Assembly (NCBI GenBank): GCA_963849085.1
Contig: CAWKFP010000007.1
Coordinates: forward strand, 20,893-84,892
Reading direction: 5' to 3'
From: an uncultured Solirubrobacteraceae bacterium
GTDB taxonomy: Bacteria; Actinomycetota; Thermoleophilia; Solirubrobacterales; Solirubrobacteraceae
DNA length: 64,000 nucleotides
Both the position numbers and the translations under genes were made by a program. Position 1 is the first letter of the stretch. Each line of letters begins with the position of its first letter. The notes under the pieces were generated by a model, which saw only the letters and a list, made by a program, of their open reading frames with translations, did no database searches and was not told where the DNA came from. Positions 58,184 through 64,000 of the stretch are shown piece after piece.

Positions 58184-59110
58184 TCAGGCCGCGCTCAGCA
58201 GGCGGGCGAGATCACGGGCCACCCCGGCCGGCTCGTCGGTGAGCCGGCGCGCCGTGACGCGGACGGTGCGCACCCCGATCAGCGCGAGCTCGGTGTCGCG
58301 CCGACGATCGGTCTCGAACGCCCGGCGGTCCCTGTGCCACATCCAGCCGTCGATCTCGACGACGAGCCGCTGCGCCGGCCAATAGGCGTCGACCAGCCGG
58401 CCCGCGACGAGCACGTTCGTCCGGGGCTCGGGCAGCCGGGCGACGCGGACGAGCTCCAGCAGCGCGCCCTCCGCGGGTGACTGGATCCACGGCGGCTCGT
58501 CGTCGAGCTCGGCCAGGACGGCGCGCAGCCGGGTGACGCCCGCGCGGCCGCCGGCGCGGCCGAGCACGTCGTCCAGCCCGCGAAGATCGAGCCGGCCGCA
58601 ACGCTGGGCCTGCTCGGCGATCGAGCGCAGGCGCTGCGCGCTGACGGTGGACAGGCCGGCGAGATCGAGCAGGGTGCGGCTGACGGTGGCGACCGGGATC
58701 GCGTCGAGGATCGTGGTGTCGCTGCCCGCGACGATCAGGCGGCTGGCGTGGCTGTGGATGCCGGGGATCGTTCGGCGGCTCGGGCCGGTGACGTCGATGT
58801 CGCCGCCGCCGACGGGGATCAGGTCGTGGAGCGCGGCCGCGGCGCGGTGGCTGAGGAAGGCGCCGTCCCCGCAGGCCAGAACGGCGGCCAGCCAGCGCCC
58901 GCGAACGGTCAGCCGGGTGTGGCCGACGGCGTAGACGCCGCGGTGCAGGCGGTGCAGGCGGCCGGTGCCCGCCCGCGTTTTGAGCGCCTGGACCGAGTAG
59001 CCAAGGCAGCTTAATTGGGCGCGGGAGACAACGCCGTGCTGCCGGGCGGCCAGGGCCGCCAGTGGTGTGTCGTCTGGTGGTTGATATTCAACCTCAGATC
59101 GCGCCACCAC
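58184..59110 (-). CDS. DUF559 (Vsr-like endonuclease fold) protein with AbiEi-like N-terminal HTH
   Basis: N-terminus QHGVVSRAQL...RLHRLHRGVYAV. C-terminus VDAYWPAQRLVVEIDGWMWH...RRDTELALIG. The GTG start at 59110 is uncertain because the first codons are low in third-position GC. Confidence 0.7.
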   Translation of the reverse strand: MVARSEVEYQPPDDTPLAALAARQHGVVSRAQLSCLGYSVQALKTRAGTGRLHRLHRGVYAVGHTRLTVRGRWLAAVLACGDGAFLSHRAAAALHDLIPVGGGDIDVTGPSRRTIPGIHSHASRLIVAGSDTTILDAIPVATVSRTLLDLAGLSTVSAQRLRSIAEQAQRCGRLDLRGLDDVLGRAGGRAGVTRLRAVLAELDDEPPWIQSPAEGALLELVRVARLPEPRTNVLVAGRLVDAYWPAQRLVVEIDGWMWHRDRRAFETDRRRDTELALIGVRTVRVTARRLTDEPAGVARDLARLLSAA

Positions 59111-59156: not shown

Positions 59157-59672
59157 TTAAGTGGAACGTCTGCGCCAGAAGAGCGTCACGAGCAACGCGA
59201 GTGTGACGGCGCCCGCGACAGCGGCGCTCCAGGACCGCCCAGGGGAGGCTCGCGTGGGCGCCGGCGCCGGCGCCGGCGAGGACGGGGGCGGGGCGGGCAT
59301 CGCGAACTCCTCGGCCGCGAGCACGTCGTGCGGCTCGGCAATGCCGGTCGGATCCTCGGGTAGGACGACCGCGTGGTGATGATGGTGGAGGATCGGATCC
59401 GGGGCCGGCACGCCGAACTCCTCGGCGGCGAGGATGTCGTGCGCGGGGTCGCGGTGCAGGCGCCGATCCGGGGCCGGCACGCCGAACTCCTCGGCGGCCA
59501 GGATGTCGTGCGCGGGGTCACGGTGCAGGCGCCGGTCCGGGGCCGGCACGCCGAACTCCTCGGCGGCGAGGATGTCGTGCGCGGGGTCGCGGTGCAGCCG
59601 CCGATCGGGCGCGGGCACGCCGAACTCCTCCGCGGCCAGGATGTCGTGGGCCTCGTCGTCGCGCTCCGCCAT
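59157..59672 (-). CDS. tail-anchored repeat protein with 5 HD(I/V)LAAEEF-x-x-PAP units; no recognised family
   Basis: ATG 59672 with GGAG SD (ATG 59690 is an alternative). Three perfect 23-aa units, a fourth ending in HHHHH and a fifth diverged unit. C-terminal TM AAVAGAVTLALLVTLFW followed by RRRST. Confidence 0.7.
   Translation of the reverse strand: MAERDDEAHDILAAEEFGVPAPDRRLHRDPAHDILAAEEFGVPAPDRRLHRDPAHDILAAEEFGVPAPDRRLHRDPAHDILAAEEFGVPAPDPILHHHHHAVVLPEDPTGIAEPHDVLAAEEFAMPAPPPSSPAPAPAPTRASPGRSWSAAVAGAVTLALLVTLFWRRRST
59287..59650 (-). repeat. 69-bp coding tandem repeats (units at 59397-59465, 59466-59534, 59535-59603, a partial unit to about 59650, and a diverged copy at about 59287-59340)
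   Basis: The units differ only at synonymous sites within the shared core. Confidence 0.9.
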
Positions 59673-59745
59673 CGGCTCCGATGATCCCATACCCGGGAGG
59701 CGATCGCCGGGTCATCCGAGGCCGCCACATCACCCCACCCTGATA

Positions 59746-59768
59746 ATCTCAGTGACCTTGACTGAGAT
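59746..59768. promoter_or_regulatory. perfect palindrome ATCTCAGT-N7-ACTGAGAT (HAIR-like geometry) in the lon / repeat-protein divergent region
   Basis: 8-bp arms with a 7-nt spacer. It sits next to GATAAT (59742-59747), has TTGACT embedded at 59758-59763, and TATTCT lies at 59784-59789. Confidence 0.55.
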
Positions 59769-59833
59769 CCTCCGACCCCGTGGTATTCTGTGCTTATCGT
59801 GCGTAAGCAACTACTGAAAGTGAAGATAGCCCC

Positions 59834-62116
59834 ATGAGTCGTCTTCTTCTCGTCCCGCTCGATGACGTCGTCGTCTTCCCCGGGATGTCGCTCACGCTGG
59901 CGATCGACGCCGGCGATGAGGAGCGGGTTCTGCTCGTGCCCCGCCACGGGGGCGAGTTCGCGGCCGTGGGTACGGTCGCCGAAGTGACCGACCGCGTGCG
60001 CCTGCCCGGCGGCGGCCGCGCCTTTGCCCTGCAGGGCCAGCATCGTGGCGTCGCCGGTGCCGCCCACAACATGCCCGACGGCCGCCTGTTCGTCGAGGTC
60101 GAGGAACAGCCCGACCCCGTCCCGGTCGACGGCAGGACGCGCAATCTCGAGCGCGAGTACCGCGCCGTCGTCGAGGAGATCCTCGAGGTCCGCGGCGATG
60201 ACGGGCGCATCTCGGCCTTCCTGCGCAGCATCTCGGAGCCCGGCACGCTCGCCGACACGAGCGGCTACAGCCCTGATCTCAACTACGACCAGAAGGTCCG
60301 CCTGCTGCAGACGCTCGACGTGACCGAGCGGCTCGAGCTGGCGCTCGAGTATCAGCGCGAGCGGCTCGCCGAGCTCCAGGTCCGCAAGCGGATCCGCGAC
60401 GACGTCGAATCGGGCGCCGAGAAGCAGCAGCGGGAGTACTTCCTGCGCAAGCAGATGGAGTCGATCCGCAAGGAGCTCGACGAGGACGATGCCTCGATCG
60501 TCGAGGAGTATCGGACGAAGATCGAGGACGCCGGGATGCCCGAGCACGCCAAGGAGCAGGCCGTGAAGGAGCTCGGCCGTCTGGAGCGGATGGGCGAGCA
60601 GTCGGCGGAGTCAAGTGTCATCCGGACATATCTGGACTGGCTGATCGCGGTGCCGTGGAGCACGACCTCCGAGGAGAAGCTCGATCCGGAGGACGCCCGC
60701 AGGGTCCTCGACGAGGATCACGCCGGTCTTGACGATGTCAAGGACCGGATCGTCGAGTACATCGCGGTCAAGAAGCTGCGCGTCGAGCGCGGGATCACCG
60801 AGGACAAGCGCTCCGGCACGATCCTGACGCTGATCGGACCGCCCGGCACCGGCAAGACCTCGATCGGCGAGTCGATCGCGCGGGCGACCGGGCGCAAGTT
60901 CGTCCGCATGTCGCTCGGCGGAGTGAGGGACGAGGCCGAGATCCGCGGCCACCGGCGGACGTACATCGGCGCCCTCCCCGGCCGGCTGGTCCGCGCCCTG
61001 CGGGATGCCGGGACGATGAACCCGGTGATCATGCTCGACGAGGTCGACAAGGTCGGCGCCGACTGGCGCGGCGACCCGTCGGCGGCCCTGCTCGAGGTCC
61101 TCGACCCCGCGCAGAACCACTCGTTCCGTGACCACTATCTCGATCTCGAGCTCGACCTCAGCGGGGTGATGTTCATCGCCACGGCGAACGTCGCCGACAC
61201 GATCCCCGGCCCGCTGCTGGACCGCATGGAGGTCATCCGCTTCGACGGCTACACGACCTATGAGAAGGTGGCGATCGCCCGCGGCTATCTGTGGCCGCGT
61301 CAGCTGGAGCGCAACGGCCTGCGGTCCGAGGAGGTGGAGATCTCCGATCAGATGCTGGAGACGGTGACGACCGAGTACACGCGGGAGGCCGGCGTCCGCC
61401 AGCTGGAGCGTGACCTCGGCACGCTGCTGCGCAAGACCGCCACGCGGGTGGCGTCTCACAAGGCGACGCCTCCGGTGACGATCGACCTCGAGCAGATCCG
61501 CGACGCGCTCGGACGCCAGCGTCACTTCCAGGAGTCGGCGATCCGCACTGCGGTGCCCGGCGTGGCCACCGGCCTGGCGGTCACCGGCGCCGGCGGCGAC
61601 GTGCTGTTCGTCGAGGCGACGGCGATGCCCGGCAAGCCGGGATTGACCCTGACCGGCCAGCTCGGCGACGTCATGAAGGAGTCGGCGCAGATCGCGCTCT
61701 CCTACGTCCGCGGCCACACCGCGGAGCTCGGGATCGAGGACCCGCACTTCGAGGAGCGCTCGTTCCACGTGCACGTACCGGCGGGCGCGATCCCCAAGGA
61801 CGGCCCCAGCGCCGGTGTGACGATGGTGACCGCACTGACCTCGCTGCTGACCGGACGGCCCGTCAAGCACACCGTCGGGATGACCGGCGAGGTGACGCTC
61901 CAGGGCCGGGTCCTGCCGATCGGCGGGCTCAAGCAGAAGGTGCTGGCCGCGCACGCCGCCGGGCTGACCGACGTCGTGCTCCCGGAGCGCAACCGCGGCG
62001 ACCTCGACGACGTCCCGGAGGAGGTCCGCCAGGAGATGGCGTTCCATTTCGCGATGACGATCGACGAGGTGCTGAACGTCGCGCTGGAGCCGGCGGCGGT
62101 CACCGCCGGCGCGTGA
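59834..62116 (+). CDS. lon: ATP-dependent Lon protease (LonA)
   Basis: LON N-domain, Walker A GPPGTGKTS, Walker B IMLDEVDK, protease Ser-Lys dyad (DGPSAGVTMVTAL...GGLKQKVLAA). Confidence 0.95.
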   Translation: MSRLLLVPLDDVVVFPGMSLTLAIDAGDEERVLLVPRHGGEFAAVGTVAEVTDRVRLPGGGRAFALQGQHRGVAGAAHNMPDGRLFVEVEEQPDPVPVDGRTRNLEREYRAVVEEILEVRGDDGRISAFLRSISEPGTLADTSGYSPDLNYDQKVRLLQTLDVTERLELALEYQRERLAELQVRKRIRDDVESGAEKQQREYFLRKQMESIRKELDEDDASIVEEYRTKIEDAGMPEHAKEQAVKELGRLERMGEQSAESSVIRTYLDWLIAVPWSTTSEEKLDPEDARRVLDEDHAGLDDVKDRIVEYIAVKKLRVERGITEDKRSGTILTLIGPPGTGKTSIGESIARATGRKFVRMSLGGVRDEAEIRGHRRTYIGALPGRLVRALRDAGTMNPVIMLDEVDKVGADWRGDPSAALLEVLDPAQNHSFRDHYLDLELDLSGVMFIATANVADTIPGPLLDRMEVIRFDGYTTYEKVAIARGYLWPRQLERNGLRSEEVEISDQMLETVTTEYTREAGVRQLERDLGTLLRKTATRVASHKATPPVTIDLEQIRDALGRQRHFQESAIRTAVPGVATGLAVTGAGGDVLFVEATAMPGKPGLTLTGQLGDVMKESAQIALSYVRGHTAELGIEDPHFEERSFHVHVPAGAIPKDGPSAGVTMVTALTSLLTGRPVKHTVGMTGEVTLQGRVLPIGGLKQKVLAAHAAGLTDVVLPERNRGDLDDVPEEVRQEMAFHFAMTIDEVLNVALEPAAVTAGA

Positions 62117-62174: not shown

Positions 62175-62340
62175 CGTCGTCCTTGAGGCCCGAGAAGAGA
62201 ATCTGACGGCTGCGGGGCCGGAGCCGTACAAACACGCACCTCGCCGCTGAGTGCGGCGCGGCGATTGATACGTTCGCATTCCTCGATCGGGAGACGGGTC
62301 GGGGACCGCTGGGTGGATGCAAAGCGGAAAGCGAGGGCAC

Positions 62341-64000
62341 ATGAGTACTCGACGTCATACGCCGGGACGGCCGGCGCGCGCGATCGGCGCCGCGGTCATC
62401 CTGGCCGCGGTCATCTCGGTCATCTCGGCCATATCGGCCGGGCCGGGAGTCGCCCGGGCGGATGCGGGACCGACAGCCGGCCTGACCGCGGCGACCGGAG
62501 CGCCGACCGTGACCGGCGCGCGGACGGCGATCTTCAACGGCCAGGTGCAGACCGGCGCCATGACGTCGTACGCCTTCCAGTACGGCGACGCCGGCTCGGC
62601 GTGGTGTCAGTCCGGCGGGACGTCCGGCGCACCGGCGGCGACGACGATCGCTCAGCGGCTCAGCGCCCGGGTCTCAGAAGCGCTGGTCAGCCTGCCGGTC
62701 GCCGGCCTCGTTCCGGGCGACGCGTACTGCGATCAGCTCGTGGCCACCGACCGCGGCGGCAGTGGCGAGGGCGGCACGACCGAGTTCACCGCCGGCGCGC
62801 CCTCGGCGCAGACCGGCGCGGCCGACACCGGGTCGCTCGGCACCGCGACGGTCCGGGGATCGGTCGATCCCTCCGGCCAGCTCACCACCGTGCGGGTCGA
62901 CTACGACACCGCCGGCTCGCCGTGGTGCGCGAGCTCGGGCGCGAGCGGCACCCCGACGTATGCCACCCGATCCTGGATCCTCGACGCCCGGGACGACGCC
63001 GGCCACGAGGTGTCGGCCGAGCTGACCGGCCTGCACGCGGGCAGCGGCTACTGCGCGGCGATCACGGCGACGAACGCCTCGGCCAGCGACCAGGGGGCGC
63101 CGGACACCTTCACCGAGGGTCAGGCGGCGGTGACCACCCTCGACGCCGTCGACACCGGTCAGAGCACCGCCGAGATCGACGGGACGGTCGACCCCGGCGG
63201 GCGGCCGAGCGCCTACTTCGCGCAGTACGGCCCATCCGGCTCGCGCTGGTGTCAGAGCTCAGGTGCACACGGCGTGGCTCCCGGCCGCACCCCCGCGCAG
63301 GACCTGGCGGTCGACGACGCCGTCTCCCACGCGGTGGCGGTGACGATCTCCGGCCTGACCGCGGGGTCGGCGTACTGCGCGGAGGTGGCGGCGCGCACCC
63401 CCGTGGGCACCGTCGCCTCGGGATTCGTCGACTCGTTCGTCGCCGGCGCGCCGAGCGCGGTCACCGACGACGCCAACGCCGCGGGCCTGACGTCGGCGGT
63501 CGTCGACGGGCAGGTCGATCCCGAGGGCGCGGCGACCACGTACGCGGTTCAGTACGCGCTCGCCGGCTCGAACTGGTGCACGACCGGCGTCGGCACCCCG
63601 GACGCGACGGCGGCGGTCGCCCTGCCCTCGACCGCTCCCGGGCCCGTCAACGTCTCGATCCCGATCGCCGGCCTGAGCACCGGGACGGCGTACTGTGCGG
63701 CGCTCACCGCCACCAACGCCTCGGGCACGAACGGCGGCGCGCCGGTGCAGTTCACGACCGGCTCGGCGCCGACCGCGGTCGCCCTCACCGCGCCGACGAC
63801 GATCACCGGCGCGGGGACCGCGACGCTCAACGGCCAGGTCGACACCGGCGGACCGGCGGCCGGCTATCAGTTCGACTACGCCCCGAACGGCAGCGCGTGG
63901 TGCGCGAGCGGCGGGGCCACCGGAAGCCCGGCGCAGACCCCGAGCCAGACGGCGACCGGCACGCCGACGCCCGTCACCGCCGACCTCACCGGCCTGGTCG
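62341..64000 (+). CDS. secreted protein of tandem FN3-like repeats with a conserved Cys pair (partial; continues past the right edge)
   Basis: ATG 62341 after GCGAGGG. I translated all 553 codons by hand and found no stop. Signal peptide AIGAAVILAAVISVISAISAGPGVARA. At least 5 units of about 105 aa with Y.FQYG...GS.WC.S.G and GL..G..YC. Absent from the ORF track. Confidence 0.8.
   Translation, partial: MSTRRHTPGRPARAIGAAVILAAVISVISAISAGPGVARADAGPTAGLTAATGAPTVTGARTAIFNGQVQTGAMTSYAFQYGDAGSAWCQSGGTSGAPAATTIAQRLSARVSEALVSLPVAGLVPGDAYCDQLVATDRGGSGEGGTTEFTAGAPSAQTGAADTGSLGTATVRGSVDPSGQLTTVRVDYDTAGSPWCASSGASGTPTYATRSWILDARDDAGHEVSAELTGLHAGSGYCAAITATNASASDQGAPDTFTEGQAAVTTLDAVDTGQSTAEIDGTVDPGGRPSAYFAQYGPSGSRWCQSSGAHGVAPGRTPAQDLAVDDAVSHAVAVTISGLTAGSAYCAEVAARTPVGTVASGFVDSFVAGAPSAVTDDANAAGLTSAVVDGQVDPEGAATTYAVQYALAGSNWCTTGVGTPDATAAVALPSTAPGPVNVSIPIAGLSTGTAYCAALTATNASGTNGGAPVQFTTGSAPTAVALTAPTTITGAGTATLNGQVDTGGPAAGYQFDYAPNGSAWCASGGATGSPAQTPSQTATGTPTPVTADLTGLV

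Follow-up and report, generated by a model that had tools for sequence, protein, structure and literature searches.

A family of small motif-repeat proteins with a predicted C-terminal membrane helix, encoded head-to-head with lon in Solirubrobacterales

What is a small acidic protein, made largely of repeats and ending in a membrane helix, doing beside the gene for the main quality-control protease? The question is raised by a stretch of 64,000 nucleotides from an uncultured Solirubrobacteraceae bacterium (GenBank assembly GCA_963849085.1, contig CAWKFP010000007.1, positions 20,893 to 84,892), called the window below, in which the gene for such a protein, here the repeat gene, lies head-to-head with lon. 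An earlier note, made from the sequence alone, took the neighbourhood as a clue and considered that the protein might serve Lon as an adaptor, anchor or decoy substrate, or else be a metal-binding stress protein. The answer I lean towards, with modest confidence, is a different one: that the protein, tethered to the membrane, displays several copies of a linear docking motif.

The gene has the architecture that the earlier note described. The minus-strand open reading frame (ORF) at 59157-59690 is confirmed and encodes 177 amino acids (aa) according to the ORF list of the window, and all the parts are there (Table 1): three identical 23-aa units, a fourth that ends in HHHHH, a diverged fifth motif, a linker, a transmembrane (TM) helix and the terminal RRRST. 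The GC content of the gene at the three codon positions is 0.82, 0.53 and 0.89 (GC3, the value for third positions, is 0.89-0.91), as expected for a real gene in the Solirubrobacteraceae genome of the window. The motif is confined to this gene, with no copy elsewhere in the 64 kb. The ORF list also contains numerous long spurious ORFs of the kind found in high-GC DNA, and several of them overlap the repeat gene.

One argument comes from comparing the repeats as DNA with the repeats as peptide. Tandem Repeats Finder gives a period of 69 bp and 3.7 copies with 93% matches, at 59396-59648. Across the three perfect units there are eight variable nucleotide sites, all at third codon positions and all synonymous, with exactly the codon pairs that the earlier note had listed. 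About 28% of random substitutions within the unit would be synonymous, which puts the probability of eight out of eight at P ~4e-5. In other species, over 89 within-protein pairs of units there are 372 synonymous and 190 nonsynonymous codon differences, so that the differences are not mostly nonsynonymous. Units are 87% identical within one protein and 80% identical between species, and the repeats would therefore be old and selected, with mild homogenisation. The substitutions thus argue that the repeat peptide is under purifying selection, which is what the earlier note had concluded from the window.

Then there is the evidence of the relatives. A search of a 90%-clustered database with one query gave at least 2,485 relatives at E <= 0.01, and a second query gave 4,002 matches; among 1.84 billion proteins the family forms 307 representative clusters at 50% identity, with lengths of 73-312 aa. 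The longest cluster members inspected are upstream read-throughs or frameshifted ORFs, and none is a fusion to another domain. At least 310 species genomes carry the family. Their organism names are Solirubrobacteraceae, Conexibacteraceae, Solirubrobacterales and Thermoleophilaceae, all of the class Thermoleophilia, to which the family appears to be restricted as far as it has been sampled. The source databases call nearly all of these proteins "hypothetical protein" and a few "MYXO-CTERM domain-containing protein" (JGI labels). That the motif corresponds to no named domain, as the earlier note had supposed, is borne out by the searches: Pfam gave the repeat protein only noise below the gathering scores, NCBIfam gave no match, a sequence profile search of the PDB gave one match at chance level (E = 0.049), and a full-text literature search for the motif strings found no paper. 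By its conservation, this is a large and real family of small proteins, unnamed and strongly conserved.

What is conserved is above all the motif, [AP]HD[VI]LAAEEFx[VML]PA, or DPTGIAEPHDVLAAEEFAMPAP when written as a single peptide, present in two to six copies per protein. Over 212 instances of the motif, D, L, A and A are found in 100%, H in 93%, the two E in 98% and 91%, and F in 97%. The 73 intact proteins have two copies in 22 cases, three in 38, four in 11, and five and six in one case each. A polar N-terminus (median 12 residues) comes before the motifs, and a variable linker of 20-35 residues separates them from the helix. The last copy, nearest the membrane, is present in all members examined and is preceded by a conserved segment, LHHGPVxLPxDP[ST]GIAEP, of which DP[ST]GIxEP is kept across the family. 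In the alignment, relatives read LHHGPVxLPxDPTGIAEP where unit 4 of the window has its HHHHH end. The smallest form of the family consists of two motif copies joined by the conserved non-repeat segment, and a second branch, with one member named Thermoleophilaceae, repeats a longer unit, DP[ST]GIxEPHDVLAAEEFAMP. One metagenomic protein, P0260, has an insert of about 50 residues rich in Cys and His (HLHVHQHHGHAHVCDCGHHAGQCDCGG...CHCGHEHDHE) between its last motif and the TM helix, which suggests metal binding in that lineage.

Could the gene nonetheless be an accident, a recent tandem duplication of DNA or a chance ORF? Spurious ORFs are common at high GC, several of them overlap this very gene, and Pfam returned nothing but noise. 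However, units that differ only synonymously, thousands of homologues with invariant residues, and a promoter-like element conserved together with the position of the start (described below) all speak against it. The substitution pattern and the conservation of the motif effectively refute a non-functional gene, and I give the idea almost no credence.

If the gene is real, what does its product look like? AlphaFold2 was run twice on the monomer, with 23 and then with 119 aligned sequences, and in both runs the only confident element is the C-terminal helix, at residues 153-176 (in the 177-aa numbering) and 148-170, respectively. In the run with 23 sequences, the block means of the predicted local distance difference test (pLDDT) over residues 161-177 are 97 and 92. 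The rest of the chain has a pLDDT of 55-75, and the predicted template modelling score (pTM) of both runs is 0.20-0.22; outside the helix, then, the chain looks disordered in these models. The Kyte-Doolittle maximum falls at aa 153-171, so that both methods agree with the single C-terminal TM helix that the earlier note had read from the sequence. In 73 homologues the median hydrophobic length is 18 aa and the median tail behind it is 5 aa. The other end of the protein has no hydrophobic segment, the best 12-residue stretch within the first 40 aa scoring 0.84, and no signal peptide was found in any member checked; 72 homologues begin with polar, charged residues. Its hydrophilic, signal-less N-terminus and its one predicted TM segment, no more than about 30 residues from the end of the chain, would place the protein in the tail-anchored class. 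Members of that class keep the N-terminal domain in the cytoplasm, however, and the charge balance given below points the other way.

Bacteria do have proteins of this kind. ElaB/YqjD of E. coli are tail-anchored membrane proteins, and the family is not known to resemble in sequence either these or SCO2900 and SCO7133 of Streptomyces coelicolor. The two Streptomyces proteins are built on the same plan, being small, with a hydrophilic N-terminus, no signal and an extreme C-terminal TM segment flanked by basic residues (Craney et al. 2011, PMC3087755). In SCO2900 the C-terminal helix is followed by four basic residues, and the N-terminus is accessible to protease (PMC3087755). Where the family differs from all of these is in its tandem copies of a linear motif and its long, unstructured acidic chain. 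The C-terminus also resembles the LPXTG, PEP-CTERM and MYXO-CTERM sorting tags, which likewise place a hydrophobic helix and a cluster of Arg at the extreme end of the protein, but its scores lie below the curated cut-offs, the signal peptide is missing and no sorting enzyme is encoded nearby. The best MYXO-CTERM scores among the members are 13.5-17.6 bits, against a cut-off of 20, and the protein of the window has no match. MYXO-CTERM is defined by a Gly-Cys signature, which is not evident in the family. In six proteins from what I call Thermoleophilaceae-type loci (P0292, P0298, P0331, P0346, P0361 and P0369), DPR[TS]L[IVL]P stands directly before the TM helix and Arg cluster. The three elements together resemble a three-part C-terminal sorting signal; here too the signal peptide is absent and the model scores are sub-threshold.

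Which way the repeats face is harder to say. Over the 73 homologues the net charge is +4.4 in the C-terminal tail, +1.6 in the 15 residues before the helix and about -12 in the N-terminal domain. In the window the 152 residues of that domain include 30 Asp/Glu, 12 Arg/Lys, 13 His and 25 Pro. With the tail more positive than the near flank, and the N-terminal domain acidic, the positive-inside rule predicts that the N-terminus is outside, the orientation also proposed for SCO2900 (PMC3087755). All things considered, repeats outside and repeats inside seem about equally probable.

I propose that the helix at the extreme C-terminus, with the three to six Arg/Lys that follow it, would fix a single-pass protein in the cytoplasmic membrane, and that the remaining 70-175 residues would form an acidic chain rich in Pro and His (net charge about -12) with no predicted fold. 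Each copy of the motif would be a short docking site, ordered only once it is bound to a partner domain. Docking is suggested because sites of this kind typically show themselves as short, invariant motifs while no structure is predicted for the chain that carries them. Unequal recombination between the 69-bp units would change the number of copies and so tune the strength of binding, with selection holding the peptide constant as silent sites drift. The gene would be transcribed from a conserved extended -10 promoter of its own. Several points weigh against this proposal. The case for docking is drawn only from how little the motif varies in a chain for which no fold is predicted, and the disorder of that chain is read from low AlphaFold confidence, which falls short of proof. 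The cues to orientation conflict, charge favouring an outward N-terminus and the signal peptide being absent; the outward topology would require the export of 152 residues of the window protein, 12 Arg/Lys among them. Finally, the near-universal adjacency to lon within one order, together with its recurrence in a divergent member (L091, described below), could reflect a functional tie to Lon.

How far does the adjacency go? In the window, 161 bp separate the start of lon from the likely start codon of the repeat gene, and the two genes lie on opposite strands. The comparison covered 80 loci from related species of Solirubrobacterales, 79 of them assessable for lon (L006 was left out). A divergent lon is present in 78 of the 79, directly upstream in 77 and 2 kb away in L077, where an inserted gene for a 578-aa secreted protein parts lon from the repeat gene. 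The exception, L054, has the repeat gene and lacks lon. The head-to-head arrangement that the earlier note pointed out thus holds throughout these loci, in which Lon identity falls to 79%. The other side of the repeat gene is no less stable, with convergent genes for Lpd and E2 in 73 and 70 of the 80 loci, and the adjacency of lon is therefore not independent evidence of function; it may be plain synteny within Solirubrobacterales. The Thermoleophilaceae-type repeat genes have different neighbours, in the order PfkB, RF-1-like, HxlR, one or two HtrA-like, globin, an unknown gene, DUF1244, the repeat gene, ferredoxin and aldehyde dehydrogenase, and lon was not found within 8 kb in any of the contexts examined. 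The linkage to lon that the earlier note wanted tabulated is accordingly real in Solirubrobacterales and not seen in the Thermoleophilaceae type; a linkage beyond shared ancestry is not borne out across the whole family. The divergent member L091 has its repeat gene 640 bp from lon, with a HATPase_c_2 gene between them. In the opposite direction, at least nine more distant lon loci (Lon identity 66-78%) have the same operator as the window, described below, and at least 1 kb of sequence on its far side, and lack the repeat gene. The adjacency may be old, but dispensable.

A second test of the partnership is whether the two genes are controlled together. An extended -10-like element, TGGGATCAT, precedes the repeat gene (Table 1), and because this conserved element sits 8 nt upstream of ATG 59672, that ATG is the likely true start, rather than ATG 59690, which lies just upstream of the element and overlaps its first base. 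Of 75 spacers, 72 contain T(C/T)TGnnAnnAT at a distance of 4-12 nt ahead of an in-frame start, and in 58 of these the distance is 6-8 nt. The commonest form, TCTGGGATCAT, is an extended -10 consensus. The element also precedes the repeat gene in L077, in L091 and in the Thermoleophilaceae-type loci, and no other ORF of the window has this promoter layout. With so little room between the element and the ATG, a leaderless mRNA is predicted, and the message of the repeat gene is probably of that type. The protein would then begin with MAERDDEA, the start that the earlier note had given.

The control of lon seems to be another matter. The spacer contains an interrupted palindrome, ATCTCAGT-N7-ACTGAGAT, which is unique in the window (none would be expected by chance) and whose arms are conserved in 72 of the 80 loci, the spacer and one internal position of each arm being free. 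Since that arm position varies with no compensating changes, the palindrome would be recognised as DNA by a dimeric protein, rather than fold into an RNA hairpin. An RNA element in the spacer was also rejected on other grounds: Rfam gave no match, and the predicted fold of the window's lon leader does not improve on that of shuffled sequence. Metagenome contigs scanned for the exact repeat gave 120 loci. Of the 78 high-GC contigs among them, 35 have it directly upstream of clpB, 18 of lon, 6 of hsp20, 2 of groES and 1 of dnaK (gene identities confirmed with Pfam). The left arm usually follows straight on a TAnnAT hexamer: the clpB promoters show this, for example in GCTACAAT-CTCAGT, and so does the window on its lon strand, where TGATAAT-CTCAGT allows a putative -10 hexamer of lon to be read. 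In L077, where the repeat gene has been displaced, the palindrome has stayed beside lon. Abutting the putative -10 hexamer of lon, travelling with lon and preceding heat-shock genes elsewhere, it is, by its position and company, a heat-shock operator belonging to lon, presumably bound by a repressor, and across these high-GC bacteria it seems to be the operator that heat-shock genes have in common. As an element shared by divergent promoters it does not fit, because the side facing the repeat gene has no abutting hexamer and the -10 element of that gene is 34-181 nt away across the loci. The operator was not found upstream of the Thermoleophilaceae-type repeat genes. Co-regulation of the repeat gene with lon is possible, but the sequence gives no indication of it.

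In Streptomyces, clpB, dnaK and lon make up the set of genes controlled by HspR, and groES and hsp20 are under other repressors (HrcA, RheA). The HspR operator of actinomycetes, HAIR, has the consensus CTTGAGT-N7-ACTCAAG (Grandvalet et al. 1999, as quoted in PMC6102357). Set beside the consensus in that quoted form, the operator here is HAIR-like: its inverted arms stand 7 nt apart around the core AGT-N7-ACT, it overlaps the -10 of its promoters, and it is found at dnaK, clpB and lon. Its arms are different, (G/A)ATCTnAGT in place of CTTGAGT, and it also precedes hsp20 and groES. Compared with the quoted consensus, TCTnAGT/ACTnAGA matches at four of seven positions per arm, or five if the free n is counted, so that by arm sequence it falls outside HAIR. 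No hspR gene came to light in the sequences covered.

With this in hand, how much remains of the idea that Lon is the partner? The repeats, if cytoplasmic, would bind the N-domains of the Lon hexamer, and the protein would be a membrane tether, an adaptor or allosteric regulator, or a high-avidity decoy substrate. The pairing with a divergent lon outlasts considerable divergence of Lon itself and persists while an AbiEi/DUF559 gene on the other side comes and goes (it is present in 33 of 80 loci), and L091 shows lon close by once more. The core of the motif, VLAA..F, is hydrophobic and aromatic, and Lon N-domains bind degrons of that sort, such as that of LarA (PMC10665427, PMC11882793); two to six copies would suit a hexameric target. 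The known Lon regulators LarA (Caulobacter), SmiA (B. subtilis; PMC9204741) and HspQ are also small proteins that act through short exposed segments. But these are soluble, with a single binding site and no membrane anchor. LarA belongs to the heat-shock proteins; its hydrophobic degron fits a conserved groove of the Lon N-domain and depends on an aromatic residue that is free at the C-terminus, and the reported place of larA is a predicted operon with a small heat-shock protein gene, not a site beside lon (PMC10665427, PMC11882793). The motif here, by contrast, is acidic, occurs in repeats and lies within the chain. Against the partnership, too, are the E2-Lpd genes, whose conservation makes the block look merely syntenic, the members of Thermoleophilaceae type with lon nowhere near, the operator-bearing lon loci with no repeat gene, the repeat gene of L054 with no lon, the separate promoter, the operator that is lon's, and a charge rule that favours outward-facing repeats. 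If the repeats do face outward, Lon cannot be the partner. The step from adjacency to adaptor, anchor or decoy, which the earlier note took, is thus not one that the locus supports, and I consider a Lon partnership unlikely. A narrower version, in which the protein is a membrane tether or valency-tuned regulator of LonA in Solirubrobacterales, its two to six PHDVLAAEEF motifs facing the cytoplasm and engaging several N-domains per hexamer, seems to me, if anything, a little less likely still.

If the charge rule is right, the basic C-terminal end would stay in the cytoplasm and the acidic, His-rich chain would lie outside the membrane, where it could bind divalent metals or an envelope protein, for example a protease of the HtrA type with a PDZ domain. 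This is about as probable as the Lon adaptor idea, which is to say that I doubt it. SCO2900, with its C-terminal TM helix, four basic residues and protease-accessible N-terminus, provides a precedent, and the C-termini do look like helix-plus-Arg sorting tags, if below threshold. His is conserved in each unit, the window protein has its HHHHH run and P0260 its Cys/His-rich insert, but the invariant Leu, Ala, Ala and Phe suit contact with a protein better than the binding of metal, and an insert rich in Cys would be more at home in the reducing cytoplasm. All four of the long Thermoleophilaceae-type contexts have one or two HtrA-like genes (Trypsin_2 plus PDZ) 1-3.5 kb upstream of the repeat gene, but they are not adjacent, two to four other genes intervening. 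Nor does any member have an N-terminal signal peptide, and the signal-less export of an N-terminal chain of 70-175 residues with several Arg/Lys is unusual. Identical tandem units, selected as peptide and variable in number, might instead recall a polyprotein, cut into several copies of an acidic signal or effector peptide like the multi-copy pheromone precursors of fungi, and basic or His-containing spacers (RRLHRDPA, DPxLHxxx) do separate the cores. These spacers, however, are not conserved cleavage sites, no gene for a protease, transporter or modification enzyme is consistently nearby, the minimal form of the family is two copies and a conserved non-repeat segment, and an export signal is lacking. 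I regard the polyprotein as very improbable. The tethered display of a docking motif remains the reading to which I incline.

Table 1. Features of the repeat gene, lon and the sequence around them (positions in the window; residues in the 177-aa numbering)
Feature	Position	Strand	Remarks
AbiEi_4 + DUF559/MTES_1575-type gene	58184-59110	-	46 nt downstream of the repeat gene, same strand
Repeat-protein coding sequence	59157..59672	-	likely start MAERDDEA, 171 aa + stop; frame open up to ATG 59690
C-terminal TM helix and basic end	59160..59234	-	SWSAAVAGAVTLALLVTLFW, then RRRST; best Kyte-Doolittle window, AlphaFold2
Pro/Ala/Ser-rich linker	59235..59288	-	length and sequence vary across the family (alignment)
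Fifth motif, membrane-proximal	59289..59330	-	HDVLAAEEFAMPAP; starts at aa 121, DPTGIAEP directly before
Fourth unit	59373..59441	-	HDILAAEEFGVPAPDPILHHHHH; first 15 residues kept, HHHHH end
Units 1-3, identical, 23 aa	59442..59648	-	HDILAAEEFGVPAPDRRLHRDPA; aa 15-83, starts at aa 15, 38 and 61
Extended -10-like element	59681..59689	-	TGGGATCAT; 8 nt upstream of ATG 59672
Perfect 10-bp palindrome	59699..59708	.	GGCGATCGCC; seven occurrences in the window, six outside this spacer
Putative lon -10 hexamer	59742..59747	+	GATAAT; abuts the operator, read from a layout as in clpB promoters
Interrupted palindrome	59746..59768	.	ATCTCAGT-N7-ACTGAGAT; HAIR-like operator of lon
lon leader	59780..59833	+	GTGGTATTCT, GCTTA-N7-TAAGC, GAAAGTGAAG, ATG; kept in nearly all 75 intergenic regions
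lon (LonA, 760 aa)	59834..62116	+	TIGR00763 831 bits; Lon_C, AAA, Lon_lid, LON_substr_bdg

The spacer between the two genes has other elements. The earlier note was right that a perfect palindrome lies there, GGCGATCGCC, but no other locus has it between lon and the repeat gene, and it was rejected as a regulatory site; the palindrome that is conserved is the interrupted one that serves as the operator of lon. Within the lon leader, GTGGTATCCT looks like a second extended -10, and CTTA-N7-TAAG has a free spacer. The leader could hold a second promoter and a second protein-binding site.

The gene downstream of the repeat gene in the window, the AbiEi_4/DUF559 type already mentioned, stands between the repeat gene and lpd only in those 33 loci, the window included, and looks like a mobile insertion. 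On the far side of lon, at about 62340-64000 on the plus strand, a large ORF runs off the end of the window; it begins with a signal-peptide-like N-terminus, MSTRRHTPGRPARAIGAAVILAAVISVISAISAGPGVARA, and contains repetitive segments rich in Thr, Ala and Gly. Only L044 conserves it, and the far side of lon is accordingly not syntenic.

The operator also brought other genes into view. L113, L125, L157 and L170 (one cluster) and L206 have candidate ORFs of 108-109 aa beside it, with GC3 of 0.83-0.88, whose acidic products, rich in Pro, His and Asp, have no match in Pfam. In L125, L170 and L206 these candidates are divergent from clpB across the operator, and in position and composition they parallel the repeat gene at lon. 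A DUF6909 protein of about 580 aa is encoded beside the operator in L105, L177, L192 and L212, divergently from clpB in L177 and L192. Among the Thermoleophilaceae-type loci, three of the four long contexts (L214, L217 and L218) have STAS, HATPase_c_2 and SpoIIE genes 5-8 kb downstream of the repeat gene; such genes are not found in L215 or L216, and the sequence of L219 ends too early to show the region. The presence of these partner-switching genes near the repeat genes of L214, L217 and L218, and of HATPase_c_2 in L091, may be coincidence.

Thermoleophilia, Actinomycetota that abound in soil, have seen very little experimental work, and two things in this locus bear on them directly. The heat-shock operator and its regulon (clpB, lon, hsp20, dnaK, groES) are now defined for the class in a form that can be used at once in annotation. 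Then there is the family itself, whose short motif is about as strictly conserved as could be expected where no structure is predicted for the chain. A motif held so constant must be recognised by something important, and the natural series of two to six copies is a ready-made experiment in valency. Were the LonA reading true after all, the protein would be the first membrane-anchored, multivalent partner of Lon described in bacteria, and the main quality-control protease would be recruited to the membrane or have its activity gated. On the reading I prefer, the family would bear on a more general matter, that of membrane-tethered arrays of linear motifs, which are well known in eukaryotes and rarely documented in bacteria.

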